Shown: positions 1,044 through 47,410 of the stretch, one piece after another | Layout: every line of letters begins with the position of its first letter | How positions within the stretch are numbered: position 1 is the stretch's first letter | The notes under the pieces: generated by a model | What the model saw: only the letters and a program-made list of their open reading frames with translations | Told to the model about the DNA's origin: nothing | Database searches by the model: none | Made by a program: the position numbers and the translations under genes | IMG/VR virus record: IMGVR_UViG_3300031555_003590 | Span: 1 to 64,000 of that record | From: a virus | Taxonomy: Duplodnaviria > Caudoviricetes | Direction: 5' to 3' (one strand) | DNA: 64,000 nucleotides

Positions 1044-2873
1044 TTATTCATATTGGAGGTAAATTCTACCAGTAGTTAGAGCAGTAGTACCAGCAGTCAT
1101 AGCACCAGTACCAGCATATATACGTCTAGCAGCAGCAGTACCAATAGCAGGTTCAGCAGGATACAATGTACTAGTGGATACAGATGAACCAAGTACACTA
1201 GTTTTAGTAGCAGTATTACCAAGCGTAATAGTACCTCTTGCAGATCCAGATGTTCCAGGAGCTACTGCAAGTACCTGAACATTTGATACAGCAGTTGCAG
1301 TATCAGAATTATATGCTTTACCATAGATATACTTAGATTGTGCTAAATAAGTATGTGCATTAACTGCAATAGTAGCACCAGCAATAGCAGTATAAGTAGT
1401 AGCATTGCCAATTGTAACAGTTCCAGGAGCTGATGAAGCAGTACCAGGACTCATTGATGCTATAATATAATTACCTAAAGTTGAACTACTAGCTGTATAT
1501 GATTTACCATAAATGTATCTACTGCCATTCATATAAATATGACCAGTATGAGTAGTATTGCCAGTAATAGTGACACTTGAACCTTTTAGGTTAGTAAGTA
1601 TTGAAGTGTTTCCTAGTTCTAAATTACCAGCAGCTGAACTAGCTGTTCCTGCATTCATTTTAGCTATAATTAAACTAGATACGGCTGTAGCTGTAGCCGA
1701 AGCATATGCTTTGCCGTAAATATATTTACCAGTATTCATTGTAAAATTGCCATTACTAGTAGTTCCACCAGTACCTAAAGTAATAGCACCGCCATCAGTA
1801 TTAATATTAATACCTGTAACAGTAGTTCCATTTGATTTAGCTTGGATTTCATTATTATCAATTTCAATATGGGCAGATGTTCTAGTACCACCTATAACAA
1901 GTGCAGGACCATTATCTGCAATACCAGACATATCTGTTGTTTTAGATAATACTAATGTTCCAGTAAATGTTTTATCACCAGCAATAGTTTGTGCACCAGT
2001 TGTAATAGCACCAGCTGCTGAAGCACTGGCAGCTGCCATTGCAATAGCACCAGAAGAAATAGATAGACCATTTCCTGCAGTAACTTTAACGTGACCATAG
2101 TTACTAGTAGTACCAACCCCATATGTAGTATCACTTGATGCATGAGAAGTAGGAGCTTTTCCATTTAACTGAGTTTGAATAGCAGATGTTACTCCATCTA
2201 AATATCCTAGTTCAGTACTAGTAACTGCTGATACAGCTACTTTTCCATTTGCATCTGAAACTAATGCTCTACTAGCAGTTAGATTACTACTAGTAATAGT
2301 AGTAGCACCACCAGTAATAGTAGCTTGTGCTCCTATATCTACTGGAGTGGGCTTATTATGTTCACCATAAATTTTATATCCATTAGAATTATCATCTATA
2401 CAATCATAAAGTATAAGAGAATTTGATAAATCAGAAAAAGTGTCATGATTAGAATTATATAAATTTAATCCACGTCTAGTAGTAACATCTGATTTTACAT
2501 TAAGATTTTGAATTGAAACAGTATTATCAGTATTTAATACACGCATTTCTGATTCAGTATTATTATCAATTCCTGTGATAAGTGGATTATTTTTTTCAAT
2601 AGTTAAATTACCACTCATTGTATCTCCGGTTTTCTTTACTGCTCCAATATCATCTGGGGTAATAGGATCACTACCGCTACTAGTATGTGTACTAGCATGT
2701 GATGGAACCATATCAGTAGGTACTTTATTATTTTCATCTGTATATAATATATTTACTTTCTTACCATTATTATCTACTAATGCTGATACTGTAGTTCTAG
2801 GATAAATATAAGTACCATCATCATTATGCAAAGTTTGAATTTTTGCATTTGTGGCCATATAATTCACCTCCAT
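1044..2873 (-). CDS. Tail fibre protein, paralog B
   Basis: Ser/Thr/Gly/Ala-rich fibre motifs (GDTMSGNL, IYGEHNKPT, ELGYLDGVTSAIQTQLNGK, YGHVK). N- and C-termini are shared with 4610..6220. Confidence 0.8.
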   Translation of the reverse strand: MEVNYMATNAKIQTLHNDDGTYIYPRTTVSALVDNNGKKVNILYTDENNKVPTDMVPSHASTHTSSGSDPITPDDIGAVKKTGDTMSGNLTIEKNNPLITGIDNNTESEMRVLNTDNTVSIQNLNVKSDVTTRRGLNLYNSNHDTFSDLSNSLILYDCIDDNSNGYKIYGEHNKPTPVDIGAQATITGGATTITSSNLTASRALVSDANGKVAVSAVTSTELGYLDGVTSAIQTQLNGKAPTSHASSDTTYGVGTTSNYGHVKVTAGNGLSISSGAIAMAAASASAAGAITTGAQTIAGDKTFTGTLVLSKTTDMSGIADNGPALVIGGTRTSAHIEIDNNEIQAKSNGTTVTGININTDGGAITLGTGGTTSNGNFTMNTGKYIYGKAYASATATAVSSLIIAKMNAGTASSAAGNLELGNTSILTNLKGSSVTITGNTTHTGHIYMNGSRYIYGKSYTASSSTLGNYIIASMSPGTASSAPGTVTIGNATTYTAIAGATIAVNAHTYLAQSKYIYGKAYNSDTATAVSNVQVLAVAPGTSGSARGTITLGNTATKTSVLGSSVSTSTLYPAEPAIGTAAARRIYAGTGAMTAGTTALTTGRIYLQYE

Positions 2874-3013
2874 ATAAATTTTTATTATTTAAATAATATT
2901 TATTCATAATTATAAATACAATCCCCTTTCTATATAATATTTGTTACTTTTTTATTACTTTAATGGTTCCGAATGAAATTATATATTCTCATAATAGGAA
3001 GGAGTGAATATAA

Positions 3014-3163
3014 TTGAAGAAAAATAAAAAGAAACTTAATGGTAGAGATGATGTTATTATTGTACATGAAGAAAATCCATATCTTAAACATAAGAAAAAT
3101 AGTAAAAAATATTCCATAATTAAAAAAATTTTTAAACCAATAAGATATAATGAGAAGGGATGA
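3014..3163 (+). CDS. Small basic hypothetical protein (49 aa, TTG start)
   Basis: Promoter motif at 2977-2989, RBS AGGAAGGAG, open frame MKKNKKKLNGRDD..., followed by a hairpin. Confidence 0.45.
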   Translation: MKKNKKKLNGRDDVIIVHEENPYLKHKKNSKKYSIIKKIFKPIRYNEKG

Positions 3164-3306
3164 TTATCCCTTCTCATTATATTCTTTATTAATATTATTC
3201 TAGGGTAGAATAATCTACTACAATAGTATCTAGATATTCAATAGATTCATATATCATGGTTTCTACTTCTTTAGTATGAGTGTTTAATTAAATTTTTATT
3301 ATATCA

Positions 3307-3714
3307 TTATTCAGTAAAATCTGCAGGTGCTTTTGTACTCGCAATACCTTTAACACCTAAAGATTTAAACCAAGCATATTGCTCTGACTGAGTCATATCC
3401 TCATCAAGTTCATCTAAATTAACATCCCCAGAAGCTATTTTAGCATTGAGAGAAGCAGAAAAAAGAGTTTCATTACTAATGAAATACTTAGGTACAAATA
3501 ACTCACTCATTTTAGCATTCGCTTCATCTACAGTCATCGTGCTAGTACATAAAGTTGTATCAAAATTACCAATAATTTCTATAAAACTATGCATCATATT
3601 ATCAGAATTAATCTGCCTAATATTATGATCTGAAAGACCTATAATTGAAAATGCTGATCGAGCATTTTCACCAAGATAATCAATTAAATTTCCTTTAAAA
3701 TATGCGATAGTCAT
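3307..3714 (-). CDS. Hypothetical tail-associated protein (possible fibre chaperone)
   Basis: ORF with AGGAGG RBS, last gene of the 6220-3307 cassette. Confidence 0.55.
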   Translation of the reverse strand: MTIAYFKGNLIDYLGENARSAFSIIGLSDHNIRQINSDNMMHSFIEIIGNFDTTLCTSTMTVDEANAKMSELFVPKYFISNETLFSASLNAKIASGDVNLDELDEDMTQSEQYAWFKSLGVKGIASTKAPADFTE

Positions 3715-3739
3715 TGTTATTTAATTCCTCCTTATATTA

Positions 3740-4591
3740 TTAAGATTTTACTCCTACAGCTTTATCTACTATAAAATCTGTTGAATAATTAATTGTTGTA
3801 GTTGTTAATAAAGCACCATTATTAGGATTAATTTCATATAGATAATTTCTATAAGTAATAAATATTCTAGAATCTAGTCCAATAATACCCATAATACTAC
3901 TATTACTACTAAGCGGTGAATCATATGAAGTAAAATTAGATTGTACAAGATCAGTATAAATTCCAGATGCAGAATTTTTTCCTATACTTAATTTTTGACT
4001 ATCATTATATCCATATCGGGCTATTATTCCAGATTTATTTCCTCCATAAGAACCGGCATAAGTAAAATTATCATCACTAATACTACCTGAAGATATAATA
4101 CTTAGATTAGATGAGTTACGAACATATGATGTATAAGAATTATCATCATAACTATACATCCATGTTCCTATACTTACACCTATTCCTGTAGGAGAAGTAA
4201 TAGAGTTAATAACACTAAGATTTTCTAAATTAAGTTGTTGATATGTTTTAGTAGAATTATTATAAATCCAATAATAACCATCTACTCCTTGTGGTATTTC
4301 TTCCCACCAGTCAGTACTTAATGTTCTAACAATAGCACCAGTATCTGGATTTATTTCATTTAATTCTTGATATGTTATATCTGTATATCCTTCACTATCT
4401 TCATATTCATTATAATGAATATGAAGAATCATTTCTCTACCAGTAAGACTACTATAAAACAATCTAGCTATACCATCGGAATCACCAATCCAGGCTTTTA
4501 TTGCTTTTCTAGCAATATTATCTACACCAATCCACATATTTTTACAATTTTGAGCAATATTATTTACTCCGATATTAATTGCTTTACTCAT
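3740..4591 (-). CDS. Tail-tip / receptor-binding protein, paralog A
   Basis: Three IG(V/D)xxIAR-type N-terminal repeats followed by a Ser/Tyr-rich, beta-propeller-like region; directly downstream of the fibre gene. Confidence 0.6.
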   Translation of the reverse strand: MSKAINIGVNNIAQNCKNMWIGVDNIARKAIKAWIGDSDGIARLFYSSLTGREMILHIHYNEYEDSEGYTDITYQELNEINPDTGAIVRTLSTDWWEEIPQGVDGYYWIYNNSTKTYQQLNLENLSVINSITSPTGIGVSIGTWMYSYDDNSYTSYVRNSSNLSIISSGSISDDNFTYAGSYGGNKSGIIARYGYNDSQKLSIGKNSASGIYTDLVQSNFTSYDSPLSSNSSIMGIIGLDSRIFITYRNYLYEINPNNGALLTTTTINYSTDFIVDKAVGVKS

Positions 4592-4609: not shown

Positions 4610-6220
4610 TTACTCATACTGAATATATATTTGTCCAGTAGGAAGTTCAGAAGTTCCAGAAGTTAGAGCAGTTGTTCCCGCTGTGATGTTGCGCACCTGA
4701 GCGAGGGTGAGGGATTGATAGCCGCCCGTGATGATCCCCCTCGTGCGGGTCGTCGCGTAGACATTCAGATCCGTCTCATATGTGTTGTATGTGTCTGTGG
4801 TCTCGTCGGCGGCTTCGGGGCTGATGAGCGTCCAGCCCTGATTGCCGAGCGCCTGTATGTTGATCGTCATGTCAACGTCAACCTCTCCCGGCACGAACAC
4901 TTCAAGATAAGCTTTTGCGCCGGAGTAGCTTTTGGGTATCGAAAGCCTGATTTTGGAGACAGGTCGCTTGCTGCCGCTGAAATATGACACATGAAGTGCT
5001 TCCGCGCCCGGATAAGACGAGTATGTCGCCCCTGCAATCACAAAAAGGCTGACATGCGCCGATGATCCTGAGACCTCTATGCTGAAAGCCCCCATATTCC
5101 GCGTCACGCTTGAGCGGGATGAGGCTATTCTATACCAGCCTTCCGCAATAGGGAGAACCCCATTAAGTTCTGAGCCATGAGCAGCTTGGATATTAGTTCT
5201 AACAATTGCATCATCAACATTAGATAATGTATTATCTGCTGCTCCTACTTCATTAGCAGTATAAGTAGGTTTAGTAGATGCTTTAGCCCATTCAGGTACA
5301 GTAGGATCTGTTTCAGTATAACTAGTAAGATATCCACTATCATTTGTTAATTCACTAGTTTTAGTAGGAACAACAATAGCATCTATTAAACTCTTTAATA
5401 CAACACCTTGAGCAGCAGATAAAGGTTTAGTAGACACATTAGTAGTTAAATTATCAATAATATCAGATACATTGACTTTATTAGTAGTAATTGCATCAAT
5501 TAATGATTTATTAGATTTAATATATGCTACAATTTCACTTAATTGATCTAATGTAGTATCATCACTATCTGCTAATGTATTAAGTTTTGTAGTTAATTCA
5601 GTTATTAATAAACGAACATCATTATGTGAAGTATTATCAGTATTATGAGATGAAATTTCTTCATCAGTATATTTATTAGCAGTAGATAAAGCATTATCAG
5701 CACTACCAATAGGATCAGCACCTACTTGTTCTGCAGTAACACTATGAGGATTATTTTTATCACTAGTATGATTATCTAAATTAGTCTGAACAACTGAAGC
5801 TGCTCCAGCAGTTTCTACATTACTTAATTCATCAGGTAGTTGTTCTAGTGGAACTTTACCACTATCATCTAGTGTTGCTACACCACCTGGTACTCCTTTA
5901 GCATCTTCATAAATAGGTTCTGGTAATAATTCTACATCCTCGCTATCACTGCCGTCATCTGAATATACTAGATTATTTAATAATTGTCTAATATCTTCAT
6001 GTGCATTAGAATCAGTATTATGAGCTTCTATTTCTGAGCTTACATCAACATTAATATCATCTGGTAACATTTCAGATGGAATTTTATTATTTTCATCTGT
6101 ATAAACTATATTAACTTTTTTACCAGTATCATCTACTAGCGCACTAACTGTAGTACGTGGATAAATATCAGTAGTACCATCAGAACTAACTAAAGTTTCA
6201 ATAATAGCTTTAGTTGACAT
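4610..6220 (-). CDS. Tail fibre protein, paralog A, with an internal high-GC domain
   Basis: HNTDSNAHEDIR, NPHSVTAEQVGA, TKTSELTNDSGY and ETDPTVPEWAK fibre motifs; C-terminal GQIYIQYE. Confidence 0.8.
   Translation of the reverse strand: MSTKAIIETLVSSDGTTDIYPRTTVSALVDDTGKKVNIVYTDENNKIPSEMLPDDINVDVSSEIEAHNTDSNAHEDIRQLLNNLVYSDDGSDSEDVELLPEPIYEDAKGVPGGVATLDDSGKVPLEQLPDELSNVETAGAASVVQTNLDNHTSDKNNPHSVTAEQVGADPIGSADNALSTANKYTDEEISSHNTDNTSHNDVRLLITELTTKLNTLADSDDTTLDQLSEIVAYIKSNKSLIDAITTNKVNVSDIIDNLTTNVSTKPLSAAQGVVLKSLIDAIVVPTKTSELTNDSGYLTSYTETDPTVPEWAKASTKPTYTANEVGAADNTLSNVDDAIVRTNIQAAHGSELNGVLPIAEGWYRIASSRSSVTRNMGAFSIEVSGSSAHVSLFVIAGATYSSYPGAEALHVSYFSGSKRPVSKIRLSIPKSYSGAKAYLEVFVPGEVDVDMTINIQALGNQGWTLISPEAADETTDTYNTYETDLNVYATTRTRGIITGGYQSLTLAQVRNITAGTTALTSGTSELPTGQIYIQYE
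5841..5941. repeat. 101-bp direct repeat, copy 1 (copy 2 at 9741..9841, 1 mismatch)
   Basis: Both copies encode EDVELLPEPIYEDAKGVPGG(V/I)ATLDDSGKVPLEQ. Confidence 0.95.
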
Positions 6221-6260
6221 ATATAAACACTTCCTTTCATAATATTTATTTAAAACTTTA

Positions 6261-6291
6261 ATTAGAGGTGGGTGATTTACCCACCTCTAAT
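6261..6291. terminator. Intrinsic terminator hairpin
   Basis: ATTAGAGGTGGGT-N5-ACCCACCTCTAAT. Confidence 0.7.
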
Positions 6292-6304
6292 ATTATTAAT
6301 TATT

Positions 6305-6541
6305 TTATAATATTAAATTTTTAATTCCGGTATTTTCAATTTTCAGATATGGTTTAGTATAGAATTCTTGTTTTTGTCTATTAATAAAAATTTGATTATA
6401 TGGAAAATTAATTTTATTATCAATAACAAATTTAAATTGAACTCTACTACCATCATCATTACTACAATCAGGATTATTACATACATAATGAGTATCTGAA
6501 ATGAGAGTAGTATTATTAGTCATACATTTAGGACATAGCAT
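6305..6541 (-). CDS. Small Zn-ribbon protein
   Basis: CPKC...CNNPDC. Confidence 0.6.
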   Translation of the reverse strand: MLCPKCMTNNTTLISDTHYVCNNPDCSNDDGSRVQFKFVIDNKINFPYNQIFINRQKQEFYTKPYLKIENTGIKNLIL

Positions 6542-44980: not shown

Positions 44981-45035
44981 TAGATAAATTTTACTTTACT
45001 TTTTCATATTATGTACTTTTAAGAGATTTTCTTTT

Positions 45036-45113
45036 TGGTCAAAGTTAATAGGAGTCGAACCTAATCCCTCCGCCGTATGTGGCAGCGTGCTATTTCCGCT
45101 ACACTAAACTTCT
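45036..45113 (-). pseudogene. Atypical or degenerate tRNA with 3' CCA and a 6-nt ACATAC anticodon loop
   Basis: GGTTCGACTCC T-arm, GTGT/GCAC D-stem, CTGCC/GGCGG stem, weak acceptor stem. Confidence 0.6.
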
Positions 45114-45218
45114 AATCTCTGCTACACTAGTCTCGATCGCTGTACATTCAATCATTGAAACTAGTTTGTACAATGTAGCATACATAAATATGGCTTTATA
45201 CTCACTACTCAATATTAT

Positions 45219-45294
45219 TGGTGTGCCTGGCGGGATTCGAACCCACGACCCTTTGATTAAAAGTCAAATGCTCTACCGACTGAGCTACAGGCAC
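45219..45294 (-). tRNA. trnK: tRNA-Lys(TTT)
   Basis: GTGCCTG...TTTGA-CTTTTAA-TCAAA...GGTTCGAATCC...CAGGCAC-ACCA. Confidence 0.97.
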
Positions 45295-45300
45295 ATGTTT

Positions 45301-45450
45301 AAAAGGATTCACCGTGGGCTACTCACACATAGTTCTGTCGGTTAGTGTTACCGACGTACTATTATATGTTTTCACCTTTAGTATATAGGCTCACTACTTC
45401 CTATATACCCAGGGGCACGGCTACTCTACTCCCTGTAAATTAAACATATA
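45301..45450 (-). ncRNA. Unidentified ~150-nt structured RNA with possible pseudoknots
   Basis: TATATGTTT/AAACATATA, CAGGG/CCCTG, GTATATAGG/CCTATATAC and GTCGGT/ACCGAC stems; loop CCGTG pairs with 3' CACGG. Confidence 0.6.
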
Positions 45451-45514
45451 TTGTATAATTATCTTTGGCACACAACACACATCAAAGATGTTATATAATA
45501 TATGTAATTTATAA

Positions 45515-45590
45515 TGGCTGGGCTAGATGGATTCGAACCATCGGAATGCAGGAGTCAAAGTCCTGTGCCTTACCACTTGGCTATAGCCCA
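45515..45590 (-). tRNA. trnQ: tRNA-Gln(TTG)
   Basis: TGGGCTA...CAGGA-CTTTGAC-TCCTG...GGTTCGAATCC...TAGCCCA-GCCA. Confidence 0.97.
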
Positions 45591-45670
45591 ATATATAAAA
45601 AGGTTTAATCTATATCTCCCACCTTCAAGGATGCACTTTTAGTAGCATTACTTCGGGAATAATTTCCCTA

Positions 45671-45746
45671 TGGCTCCCCCAGTTGGACTCGAACCAACGA
45701 CACTGCGGTTAACAGCCGCATGCTCTACCGACTGAGCTATGGAGGA
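45671..45746 (-). tRNA. trnN: tRNA-Asn(GTT)
   Basis: TCCTCCA...TGCGG-CTGTTAA-CCGCA...GGTTCGAGTCC...TGGGGGA-GCCA. Confidence 0.97.
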
Positions 45747-45751
45747 ATATA

Positions 45752-46118
45752 AAGTACAGACAGATCAACATTTTACACACTAACCTAGTCCTAAGACTGC
45801 TAGTACCTCTCCAAACAATTATTGCTTTCCACGCCTCAAATGTTGATGTGACTCTGCCTGATATTTACTCTGAGCAGTCACTACCCAGTTGTCAACCCCC
45901 ACTTAATCCTGCCTATTCTAGGTATCGATGTGATTGACTGCTTATGCCTTTAAGCATCGGATATCCTACTTCACCCATTTCAGATAATCCGCATAGCCTC
46001 CTACTTGGCTCTTATAGGCTTGATTTGCATTTTTTGAATAGAGTGCTACTCCCACACGTTCCCATCTCTATTACTGTAGTCAGTAATCCAGCCAGGATAT
46101 ATCATTTCACCTGGACTT
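45752..46118 (-). ncRNA. Unidentified ~370-nt highly structured RNA
   Basis: GC-enriched, no ORF in the track, about 10 complementary stems including crossing pairs (see findings). Confidence 0.65.
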
Positions 46119-46120
46119 AA

Positions 46121-46461
46121 TGGTGCGGGTAGCCGGACTCGAACCGGCATGGATTACTCCGAGAGATTTTCATCACACTCTTGGTTATGAATTCCCAAGC
46201 CAATTCAAAGAATTGTTGTGCGCTGGAATACGTTTTTACCATATCATTCCTGACTTAGGTAGTAGGTCTATATTCTCTACACATTTATCAAATTATTTCT
46301 AATTTGAATTTAGCACGGCGTTCCCATTGAGCCATTCACCGTTTTAGCCTACTCCACTTATAAAGTTTCCTTCATAAGGCTCCACCTTTACTCAAGGCAA
46401 CTTACTATAGCAAGTTCTCAATGGAGAAGTCTCTTGTGTCTGCCAATTTCACCATACCCGC
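46121..46461 (-). tRNA. trnL: tRNA-Leu(TAA), intron-split; exons 46461..46427 and 46170..46121 (85 nt mature)
   Basis: GCGGGTATGGTGAAATTGGCAGACACAAGAGACTT^AAAATCTCTCGGAGTAATCCATGCCGGTTCGAGTCCGGCTACCCGCACCA. Confidence 0.93.
46171..46426 (-). mobile_element. Group I intron (256 nt, trnL/IC3-like) in the Leu anticodon, U^AA
   Basis: P1 CTT/GAG with U.G; P2 CTTATGAAG-GAAA-CTTTATAAG; P3 AGTAGG/CCTACT; P7 GAATA/TATTC; terminal G at 46171. Confidence 0.88.
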
Positions 46462-46471
46462 ATATTATATA

Positions 46472-46975
46472 TCAAATATATTTAAAATAAGTTTTCTCAA
46501 TTTTTTGTGCAGGAATTTTATCTATTTTATTATTTTGAATAGATGCACCATATTTACCTGCACATTCTTTACTACAGAAATGAGGTTTATTTCTATTTCG
46601 TTTATCAGTTTGAGCTTTAGTTGGAGTAAACATCTTACCACATATCGGACATTTAATATCTTTAACTTCAACTCTAATTGCATCATTTTTGGTATGTTCT
46701 TTACGAGGTTGGATATCTAAATTATGAGGCAAATTATTAACTACATTCCAATCTTTATGATGAATGGTATCAGTATCTTTTATAAGTTTATTTATTTCAA
46801 TCTCTTTTAACGCTTTTGGGTAAGAAATTGTTTTTGTCTTACCTTTTATATTTTTTGATTTAGATGAGTCATTTAAAACTATATGTAATCTACCATCATC
46901 TCTTAGATATGGACCGTAAACTTTATCATATTCTGAATATAATTTCAGAATAGGACTTAAATCTTTATTATCCAT
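46472..46975 (-). CDS. Free-standing HNH endonuclease with C-terminal Zn finger
   Basis: IHHKDWNVVNNLPHNL......EH; CPICG...FCSKEC. Confidence 0.85.
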   Translation of the reverse strand: MDNKDLSPILKLYSEYDKVYGPYLRDDGRLHIVLNDSSKSKNIKGKTKTISYPKALKEIEINKLIKDTDTIHHKDWNVVNNLPHNLDIQPRKEHTKNDAIRVEVKDIKCPICGKMFTPTKAQTDKRNRNKPHFCSKECAGKYGASIQNNKIDKIPAQKIEKTYFKYI

Positions 46976-47010
46976 ATTATTAAAACCTCCAATATATTAA
47001 GATGAAATAG

Positions 47011-47038
47011 CTGTGTCTGCCAATTCCACCACACCGGC
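47011..47038 (-). pseudogene. Orphan 5' half of a tRNA-Leu
   Basis: GCCGGTGTGGTGGAATTGGCAGACACAG versus the intact exon GCGGGTATGGTGAAATTGGCAGACACAA (24/28 identical). Confidence 0.8.
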
Positions 47039-47162
47039 AGATAAATGGCACTAACGTAGTTCCCACGGCTCTTTTTTCACCCTTCTTTATATAAAGTTAG
47101 GATGCCTCTCGCACTAGCTGTGCTAAGGTTTTAAGAATACTATATAGTATTCTTATTGCAAT

Positions 47163-47239
47163 TGGTGGGCCTTCAGGGGCTCGAACCCTGGACCTGCAGA
47201 TTATGAGTCTGATGCTCTAACCGGCTGAGCTAAAGGCCC
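47163..47239 (-). tRNA. trnI2: tRNA(CAT), most likely Ile2 (lysidine type)
   Basis: GGGCCTTTAGCTCAG...CTCATAA...AAGGCCC-ACCA; the acceptor resembles Firmicutes Ile2 and lacks the fMet C1:A72 mismatch. Confidence 0.9.
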
Positions 47240-47290
47240 AAATATATTGTTTTAATAAATTTAGATATATTGTAATTTAAATTCAAAGAA

Positions 47291-47308
47291 ATAATATATA
47301 ATTGAAAA
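47291..47308 (-). promoter_or_regulatory. Early-type promoter of the tRNA operon
   Basis: TTTTCAATTATATATTAT about 50 nt upstream of the first tRNA, after a terminator at ~47370-47402. Confidence 0.65.
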
Positions 47309-47410
47309 ATGAGGTTTATTTTTTAACCGTAAATATTTGTATATCTTTATTCACTTTTTATTTTAAAAATAGGATGGGGCAATTTTATATACCCCATCCT
47401 ATGATTATGA

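Follow-up and report, generated by a model that had tools for sequence, protein, structure and literature searches.

What is the gene of a homing endonuclease doing between two copies of the 5' half of the same tRNA gene? The question is raised by a short minus-strand segment of a giant phage, and I will call the window the whole stretch analysed around it, the first 64 kb (64,000 nucleotides) of a 292-kb virus record. An earlier note had proposed that a unit made of the HNH gene, a replacement 5' exon and an ORF-less intron invaded an intron-less tRNA-Leu gene and left its old half behind. The answer favored here keeps the invasion and changes the invader. Positions 47038-46121 are probably the footprint of a homing cassette that targets tRNA-Leu, in which an HNH gene and a whole spare tRNA-Leu destroy and replace the resident gene.

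The only tRNA genes that ARAGORN finds in the window form one cluster, on the minus strand. Read in that direction, the relevant part begins with tRNA-Met(CAU) (47163..47239; 70 bits against the Rfam tRNA model), given here as the upstream neighbor for context, followed by a 124-nt spacer and a 29-nt tRNA-Leu 5' stub (47010..47038) that comprises the acceptor strand and D-arm and runs two bases into the anticodon stem. After the stub come a 34-nt leader (46976..47009) in which a GGAGG ribosome-binding site can be read at 46990-46986, a free-standing HNH endonuclease gene of 167 aa (46472..46975), 10 nt, and finally a tRNA-Leu(UAA) gene in three parts, all on the same strand: a 5' exon (46427..46461; positions 1-35, ending in GACUU, the last base being U34), a predicted ORF-less group I intron of 256 nt (46171..46426), and a 3' exon (46121..46170; positions 36-85) with a long variable arm and an encoded CCA. 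The arrangement is 99.9% identical in two independent JGI contigs, and contigs from four public faecal DNA runs span 46359-46702 and 46682-47400 with zero differences. Since every junction is confirmed by these sequences, the arrangement is not an artefact of assembly.

Rfam, applied at its gathering threshold to the window and at E ≤ 10 to positions 45000-47400, reports four intact tRNAs and no group I intron or other family. The leader of the HNH gene has no similarity to any fetched locus. The same is true of two non-coding spacers on the minus strand within the cluster, 45747-46120 (374 nt) and 45295-45514 (220 nt), which also lack Rfam matches; the fold of the longer one is unremarkable (z -0.7). 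A promoter-like TTGGCA/TAATAT pair that overlaps the stub was rejected, such sites being no commoner than by chance.

That the HNH gene is bracketed by two tRNA-Leu 5' halves, as the earlier note had seen, is readily established. A 27-nt degenerate pattern that covers both (GCSGGTRTGGTGRAATTGGCAGACACA) has exactly two matches in the 64-kb window, 47038-47012 and 46461-46435, where 100 shuffles lead one to expect none. The stub and the 5' exon are identical at 24 of 28 positions; two of the four differences lie in the acceptor stem, and the surroundings are intact. Using a tRNA-Leu profile built here (searched with nhmmer), the stub matches positions 1-29 only (E 7e-5), the downstream copy matches positions 1-35, and 46170-46121 matches positions 36-85 (E 5e-7). 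The upstream copy therefore does break off at the start of the anticodon stem, ending in ACACAGC, after which the unrelated leader begins. Lacking the anticodon loop and the 3' half, it must be non-functional.

The downstream gene was likewise confirmed as an intron-bearing tRNA-Leu. ARAGORN, with introns allowed, reports a tRNA at 46461-46121 with a 256-nt intron, its boundary off by 1 nt and its identity mislabelled as Phe. With the intron set at 46426-46171, the product spliced in silico is a perfect 85-nt class II tRNA-Leu(UAA) with an encoded CCA, a result that holds when ARAGORN is given the spliced sequence. The acceptor strand of the 3' exon forms 7 of 7 pairs with that of the 5' exon and meets a C-C mismatch with that of the stub. 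With the tRNA-Leu profile no 3' stub is recognizable downstream of 46121 in the window to mark where the insertion ends on the right; the sequence that follows the CCA (UUAAGUCCAGG) resembles the start of an anticodon loop only loosely.

By its sequence and predicted fold, the 256-nt insert is a group I intron of the tRNA-Leu(UAA) type, IC3-like. The elements identified are P1 with a U34-G pair (CUU|CUCC pairing with GGUGGAG, U34 opposite G, drawn by hand and consistent with the MFE structure), P2 with a GAAA loop, P4, P6, P7 with a bulged A, P8 with an 11-nt CCUAAG/UAUGG receptor, P9, and a terminal G as the last base, followed by AAAAUC. The insert is more stable than chance would have it (MFE z -3.1, with 0 of 200 shuffles equally stable). 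RNAalifold, applied to 18 intron cores, recovered P4, P7, P8 and P9, with compensatory changes in 18 of 23 pairs, and the window intron keeps all 23 of these consensus pairs. From such features one would expect it to splice. No RNA sequencing run is listed as containing the locus.

The window copy is too diverged for the Rfam group I model RF00028, giving no match even at E ≤ 10, and it has no blastn match in GenBank phages. Related or neighboring introns do match that model: L156 with 74 bits, L142 with 62, L141 with 60 and L165 with 51 (the last three reaching the Rfam threshold), as does L123, a member of the window intron's own subfamily (44.5 bits, E 5e-8). A scan for the intron's core motif found 14 viral loci, all of them within tRNA-Leu genes and in the anticodon loop, most with a UAA anticodon and the intron after U34. 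These introns are either ORF-less (255-288 nt) or contain HNH ORFs. The core of the window intron is 71-81% identical to those of introns that bear the same HNH family (L153, L158 and L177); L069, L123 and L130 are ORF-less relatives with no HNH gene nearby. One contig from the DNA runs (X3, depth 3.3) joins 46170 to 46427, omitting exactly the 256-nt intron. I have not counted it as an intron-less allele of the window phage, since the similarity stops at the 5' end of the tRNA; with only 35 nt on the 5' side and a likeness threshold of 85%, it may be the intron-less tRNA-Leu of another organism.

The 167-aa ORF matches PHROG families of HNH endonucleases with E values of 1e-11 and 1e-7. Pfam gives no HNH match to it at threshold and only a weak match to a zinc finger; PF13392 is found in the precomputed annotation of 13 of its homologues. 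There are 65 such homologues, about 165 aa in length and 40-57% identical. In their alignment (A1), 18 residues are invariant in the family, including the HNH histidines and four cysteines, and all 18 are present in the window protein. The motif HHKD..NN..N..H, likewise invariant in the alignment, is present as well. The protein combines an HNH core like that of I-HmuI with a C-terminal CxxC...CxxxC zinc finger. It models in AF2 with a pLDDT of 95.5, and its closest solved structure by sequence profile and by fold is I-HmuI (1u3e), weakly (E 0.02, 17% identity, TM 0.32). The only two proteins picked up by a direct protein scan of viral contigs, L002 and L003, were rejected as zinc-finger look-alikes of another family, not near tRNA-Leu.

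A protein tree places the window HNH in a supported clade (98/88) of six free-standing enzymes with the same geometry. The adjacent tRNA contains an intron in four of the six and is intron-less in two, and two loci that differ in this way, the intron-bearing L165 and the intron-less L136, have HNHs that are sisters in the tree. The introns of the clade lie after position ~26 (L141), after ~32 (L142) and at 34|35 (window and L165). The intron of L141 (3018-3331) interrupts the gene after GACAU, where the D-arm gives way to the anticodon stem, and that of L142 (3007-3336) does so after ACGGA, just before C32; neither place is the classical U34|A35. In the tree as a whole, free-standing and intron-borne enzymes fall into largely separate clades.

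In order to see what the family is tied to, viral contigs were scanned with a profile of the HNH protein and the resulting 63 loci sorted by means of ARAGORN and the tRNA-Leu profile. The HNH gene lies inside a tRNA-Leu gene or within about 80 nt of one in 56 of the 63, and 50 of those 56 are tRNA-Leu(UAA). In 28 loci the gene is within an intron of 626-720 nt at U34|A35 of tRNA-Leu(UAA); in 16 it lies 0-24 nt upstream of an intron-less tRNA-Leu; in 5, as in the window (which is additional), it precedes a tRNA-Leu(UAA) interrupted by a short ORF-less intron; in 7 it lies just downstream of a complete tRNA-Leu; and 7 loci are of other kinds. Assemblies provide two further intron-less cases (L136 and L138), and GenBank provides 11 further records of cultured phages with the HNH gene (9 from Salmonella and 2 from Klebsiella), of which the two inspected, PVP-SE1 and KP13-16, have it directly upstream of tRNA-Leu. 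The specialization of the family on tRNA-Leu(UAA) is thus supported. For a homing enzyme borne by an intron, as in 28 of the loci, the position implies a target at U34|A35 of intron-less alleles.

Orphan halves of tRNA-Leu are a trait of the family and not a peculiarity of the window. Next to free-standing HNH genes, 5' stubs occur in the window, L165, L185, L191, L136, L138, L197, L198 and PVP-SE1, and 3' stubs occur in L141, L165, L136, L138, L145 and L188. The halves tend to be broken at the anticodon stem-loop. Most 5' stubs stop within positions 27-30, the 3' stubs set in at 33-40, and the few bases missing from both kinds belong to the 5' strand of the anticodon stem and to the beginning of the loop. 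All three intron sites of the window's clade fall within this breakpoint region. In L136 and L165 two stubs flank the unit of HNH gene and tRNA, and the acceptor strands of the two are complementary, which indicates a single resident gene split by that unit.

What is the origin of the stub? The most direct answer comes from Seunavirus. PVP-SE1 and eight related records carry the HNH gene (in PVP-SE1 the locus L204, NC_016071.1 66004-66387, which has no CDS annotation in the RefSeq record), and about 680 bp is missing at that place in SPLA5a, 4MG and several Cronobacter phages. The order in PVP-SE1 is a 29-nt stub, the HNH gene, whose ATG abuts the stub, and a different, complete tRNA-Leu(UAA). 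SPLA5a and 4MG have no HNH gene and have instead an intact resident tRNA-Leu(UAA) that opens with the very 29 nt of the PVP-SE1 stub. The flanking DNA shared with PVP-SE1 is about 97% identical in SPLA5a and about 83% in 4MG. In Seunavirus the HNH gene is present or absent between genomes that are otherwise collinear. In alignments with PVP-SE1 the flanks resume past a shared ...GCACCA. The stub equals the resident gene of the relatives, and the tRNA adjacent to the HNH gene is wholly foreign. The comparison shows directly that a homologous cassette invaded a resident tRNA-Leu in PVP-SE1. An extra stretch of about 190 nt upstream in PVP-SE1, absent from SPLA5a and 4MG, contains an anticodon-loop-like AAUCUUAAAACC motif.

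PVP-SE1 and the window share this geometry, with a 5' stub broken off at the same position and a 3' stub lacking in both. By analogy, the window phage would have undergone the same event, and the upstream copy would be, as the earlier note held, the remnant of an older, invaded tRNA-Leu gene. Relatives with an uninterrupted gene and no HNH, of the kind for which that note had called, were found for the homologue, in SPLA5a and 4MG. For the window phage itself no close relative lacking the HNH gene was found among viral contigs, in faecal DNA runs or in the phage L208 of the same study, and so the direction of the event there rests on analogy. The proteins encoded next to the locus (ORFs of 411 aa and 206 aa) have no relatives in viral contigs, for which reason no syntenic HNH-less relative could be found. 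L208, a 168-kb phage, has an intron-bearing tRNA-Leu with a D-arm like that of the stub; it was rejected as the window's empty site because its acceptor stem and genome differ.

It is in the nature of the incoming unit that the earlier note needs correction. The 3' half of the window tRNA matches the new 5' half in all seven acceptor pairs and the tRNA of PVP-SE1 is foreign throughout, which together indicate that the unit was the HNH gene plus a whole tRNA-Leu gene, and not the HNH gene plus a 5' exon and an intron.

The probable course of events can be pictured as follows. A free-standing, I-HmuI-like HNH gene would travel with its own complete tRNA-Leu(UAA) gene. During mixed infection the enzyme would nick or cut the intron-less tRNA-Leu(UAA) of a cassette-free phage in the anticodon stem-loop, at about canonical positions 27-35, a cut site suggested by the stub breakpoints and intron positions. 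Repair would copy in the HNH gene and the linked tRNA, and the resident gene would be destroyed, its first 29 nt remaining as a stub and the rest being lost. The spare tRNA would restore function, and the insertion would therefore cost the phage little. The spare copy must itself escape the nuclease. In the window, a group I intron splits it exactly within the presumed target and may thereby shield it, an arrangement that is clearly not obligatory; in relatives the intron-less spare copy is presumably protected by differences in sequence. The intron would then be an optional and possibly protective passenger. Against this, several intron-less spare tRNAs keep the canonical GACUUAAAAUC anticodon region. 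Similarity of the HNH proteins does not correlate with similarity of the adjacent tRNAs over 23 free-standing loci (Mantel r 0.01, p 0.43), and long-term joint travel of HNH gene and tRNA is consequently not demonstrated beyond PVP-SE1.

How does this picture fare against others? The closest to it is the strict form of collaborative homing, according to which the HNH gene and the ORF-less intron moved as co-adapted partners, the former encoding a nuclease that cuts the insertion site in intron-less tRNA-Leu and the latter conferring immunity. The position of the window intron, U34|A35, is just where the family is intron-borne in 28 loci, and the resemblance of its core (71-81%) is to introns that bear this very family. 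The intron sites at ~26, ~32 and 34/35 all lie within the stretch where orphan halves break, and introns are found beside free-standing HNHs in 6 of 31 loci (4 of 6 in the window's clade) as opposed to 2 of 53 background phage tRNA-Leu(UAA) genes (p 0.047, from a background sample that is biased and redundant). All the same, I consider the strict form unlikely. The earlier note had counted routine occurrence of the HNH gene beside intron-less tRNA-Leu against its reading, and such occurrence is what the survey found, in the 16 loci upstream and 7 downstream of the tRNA and in the cultured Salmonella and Klebsiella phages. The survey of co-occurrence that it suggested yields those 6 of 31 loci only, with the sister HNHs of L136 and L165 differing in the presence of an intron. 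The introns of the window's clade come from different lineages and occupy different insertion sites, and so were not inherited along with the HNH gene. No HNH gene lies near the ORF-less introns of L069, L123 and L130 that are related to the window's.

The stub might also have arisen at home, if breaks induced by the HNH caused part of the phage's own tRNA-Leu to be duplicated in tandem and one copy decayed, much as in the segmental amplification attributed to SegB, which cuts within tRNA genes and generates repeats bounded by microhomology (PMC13096335). The stub of L191, which agrees with the tRNA beside it in all of that tRNA's first 20 nt, is what such a duplication would leave. The stub of the window is not, given its 4 differences in 28 from the 5' exon, two in the acceptor stem, amid intact surroundings, and neither is that of PVP-SE1, which equals the resident gene of relatives and is unrelated to the adjacent tRNA. 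I regard local rearrangement as quite improbable. Alternatively, the HNH gene may once have been encoded by an intron in the resident tRNA-Leu and been stranded when a second tRNA-Leu overwrote the ribozyme core and the 3' exon. Most members of the family are indeed intron-borne, and the order of 5' exon and then HNH gene is common to both situations. A stub produced in this way should end at position 35, however, and the stubs end at 27-30 with no 5' intron sequence after them; in PVP-SE1 the ATG abuts position 29. This, together with the largely separate clades of free-standing and intron-borne enzymes, makes a stranded intron gene highly improbable.

Returning to a cassette of HNH gene and spare tRNA, a broader proposal may be made for the family, one that I offer tentatively and would not yet bet on. 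The HNH would have two interchangeable ways to insert without harm, a self-splicing intron or a spare copy of the gene. Leftover halves would serve as portable homology arms for homing into the tRNA-Leu genes of unrelated phages, introns in the spare tRNAs would be immunity devices, and the observed states would form a natural series in the assembly of a mobile intron.

Several known systems resemble this one in part. Collaborative homing has been described for F-CphI and the psbA intron of cyanophage S-PM2 and for mobE and the nrdB intron of T-even phages (PMC3984707; PMC2790892). The window is similar in that its intron lies at the presumed target site of the nuclease. It differs in that the target is a tRNA gene rather than a protein-coding gene, that the incoming cassette supplies a replacement gene in full while only a stub remains of the old one, that the intron is dispensable in most relatives, and that cleavage is in this case putative. 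SegB, a GIY-YIG enzyme of the tRNA cluster of T4 and T6, cuts within tRNA genes and drives preferential inheritance and rearrangements (PMC2330249; PMC13096335). Like the window enzyme, it is a homing endonuclease of a phage, free-standing and encoded in the midst of tRNA genes. The window family, however, is HNH rather than GIY-YIG and is specific to tRNA-Leu, mostly UAA, whereas SegB shows no isotype preference and is not known inside tRNA introns.

I-HmuI, a nicking HNH enzyme encoded in an intron of Bacillus phage SPO1, is the best match by profile and by fold, is of similar size, and likewise has a beta-rich, DNA-binding N-terminus ahead of the HNH core. Its C-terminus is a helix-turn-helix, in contrast to the FCS/YacG-like zinc finger of the window HNH, and its target is a DNA polymerase gene. 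As for the intron, that of cyanobacterial and plastid tRNA-Leu(UAA) has the same host gene, the same site (U34|A35), a similarly small size, a GAAA loop in P2 and a receptor in P8. The cyanobacterial and plastid intron is ORF-less, whereas the window intron belongs to a family that resides in phage genomes and has many members with HNH ORFs.

A review of 2014 placed all phage introns then known in protein-coding genes. A full-text literature search, of incomplete coverage, found no published description of group I introns in phage tRNA genes or of a cassette of HNH and tRNA-Leu. The finding is best filed under the biology of free-standing homing endonucleases, as the case of an HNH specific to tRNA-Leu whose accompanying spare tRNA may or may not contain an intron. 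If the interpretation is right, then homing endonucleases and group I introns contend for phage tRNA genes as well as for protein-coding genes, and orphan tRNA fragments in phage tRNA clusters are scars of homing. One enzyme family and one 85-nt target would then present a natural series of states, through which the assembly of composite mobile introns from free-standing endonucleases and introns becomes testable. Since cultured Salmonella and Klebsiella phages carry cassettes and have cassette-free sisters, cleavage mapping and crosses are feasible by ordinary phage genetics.

Some observations on the surroundings of related loci may be recorded. Just downstream of the HNH-tRNA-Leu cassette of L165 there are a twister-sister-like sequence and an LSU-rRNA-like sequence (3910-3990 and 4243-4345); the twister-sister match is below threshold (31.7 bits against a gathering score of 34 bits), and the LSU-rRNA-like fragment is 100 nt with a score of 42 bits. 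L069, the phage whose intron is, among ORF-less ones, the most closely related to that of the window, has a full-length ROOL RNA in its tRNA cluster (5882-6477; 306 bits) and a fragment of a GIY-YIG-like ORF about 1.1 kb downstream of its tRNA-Leu. In L130, a tRNA-Leu(UAA) interrupted by an ORF-less member of the window intron's subfamily is immediately preceded by a 368-aa ORF (2860-3966) that, to the eye and in its N-terminal sequence, resembles TnpB/IS200-605 OrfB. L129 (6927-7759) and L131 (minus strand) have an intron of the same subfamily with a different HNH ORF, in a tRNA with a short variable arm whose loop reads CUC|AAAA, with C instead of U at the splice site and a CAA-like anticodon. 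Finally, L014, L080, L084, L052, L105 and L121 contain tRNA-like genes that ARAGORN left unresolved, with the D-arm of tRNA-Leu, long inserts, and anticodon-loop regions such as CUGUCCC or CUGUCUC.
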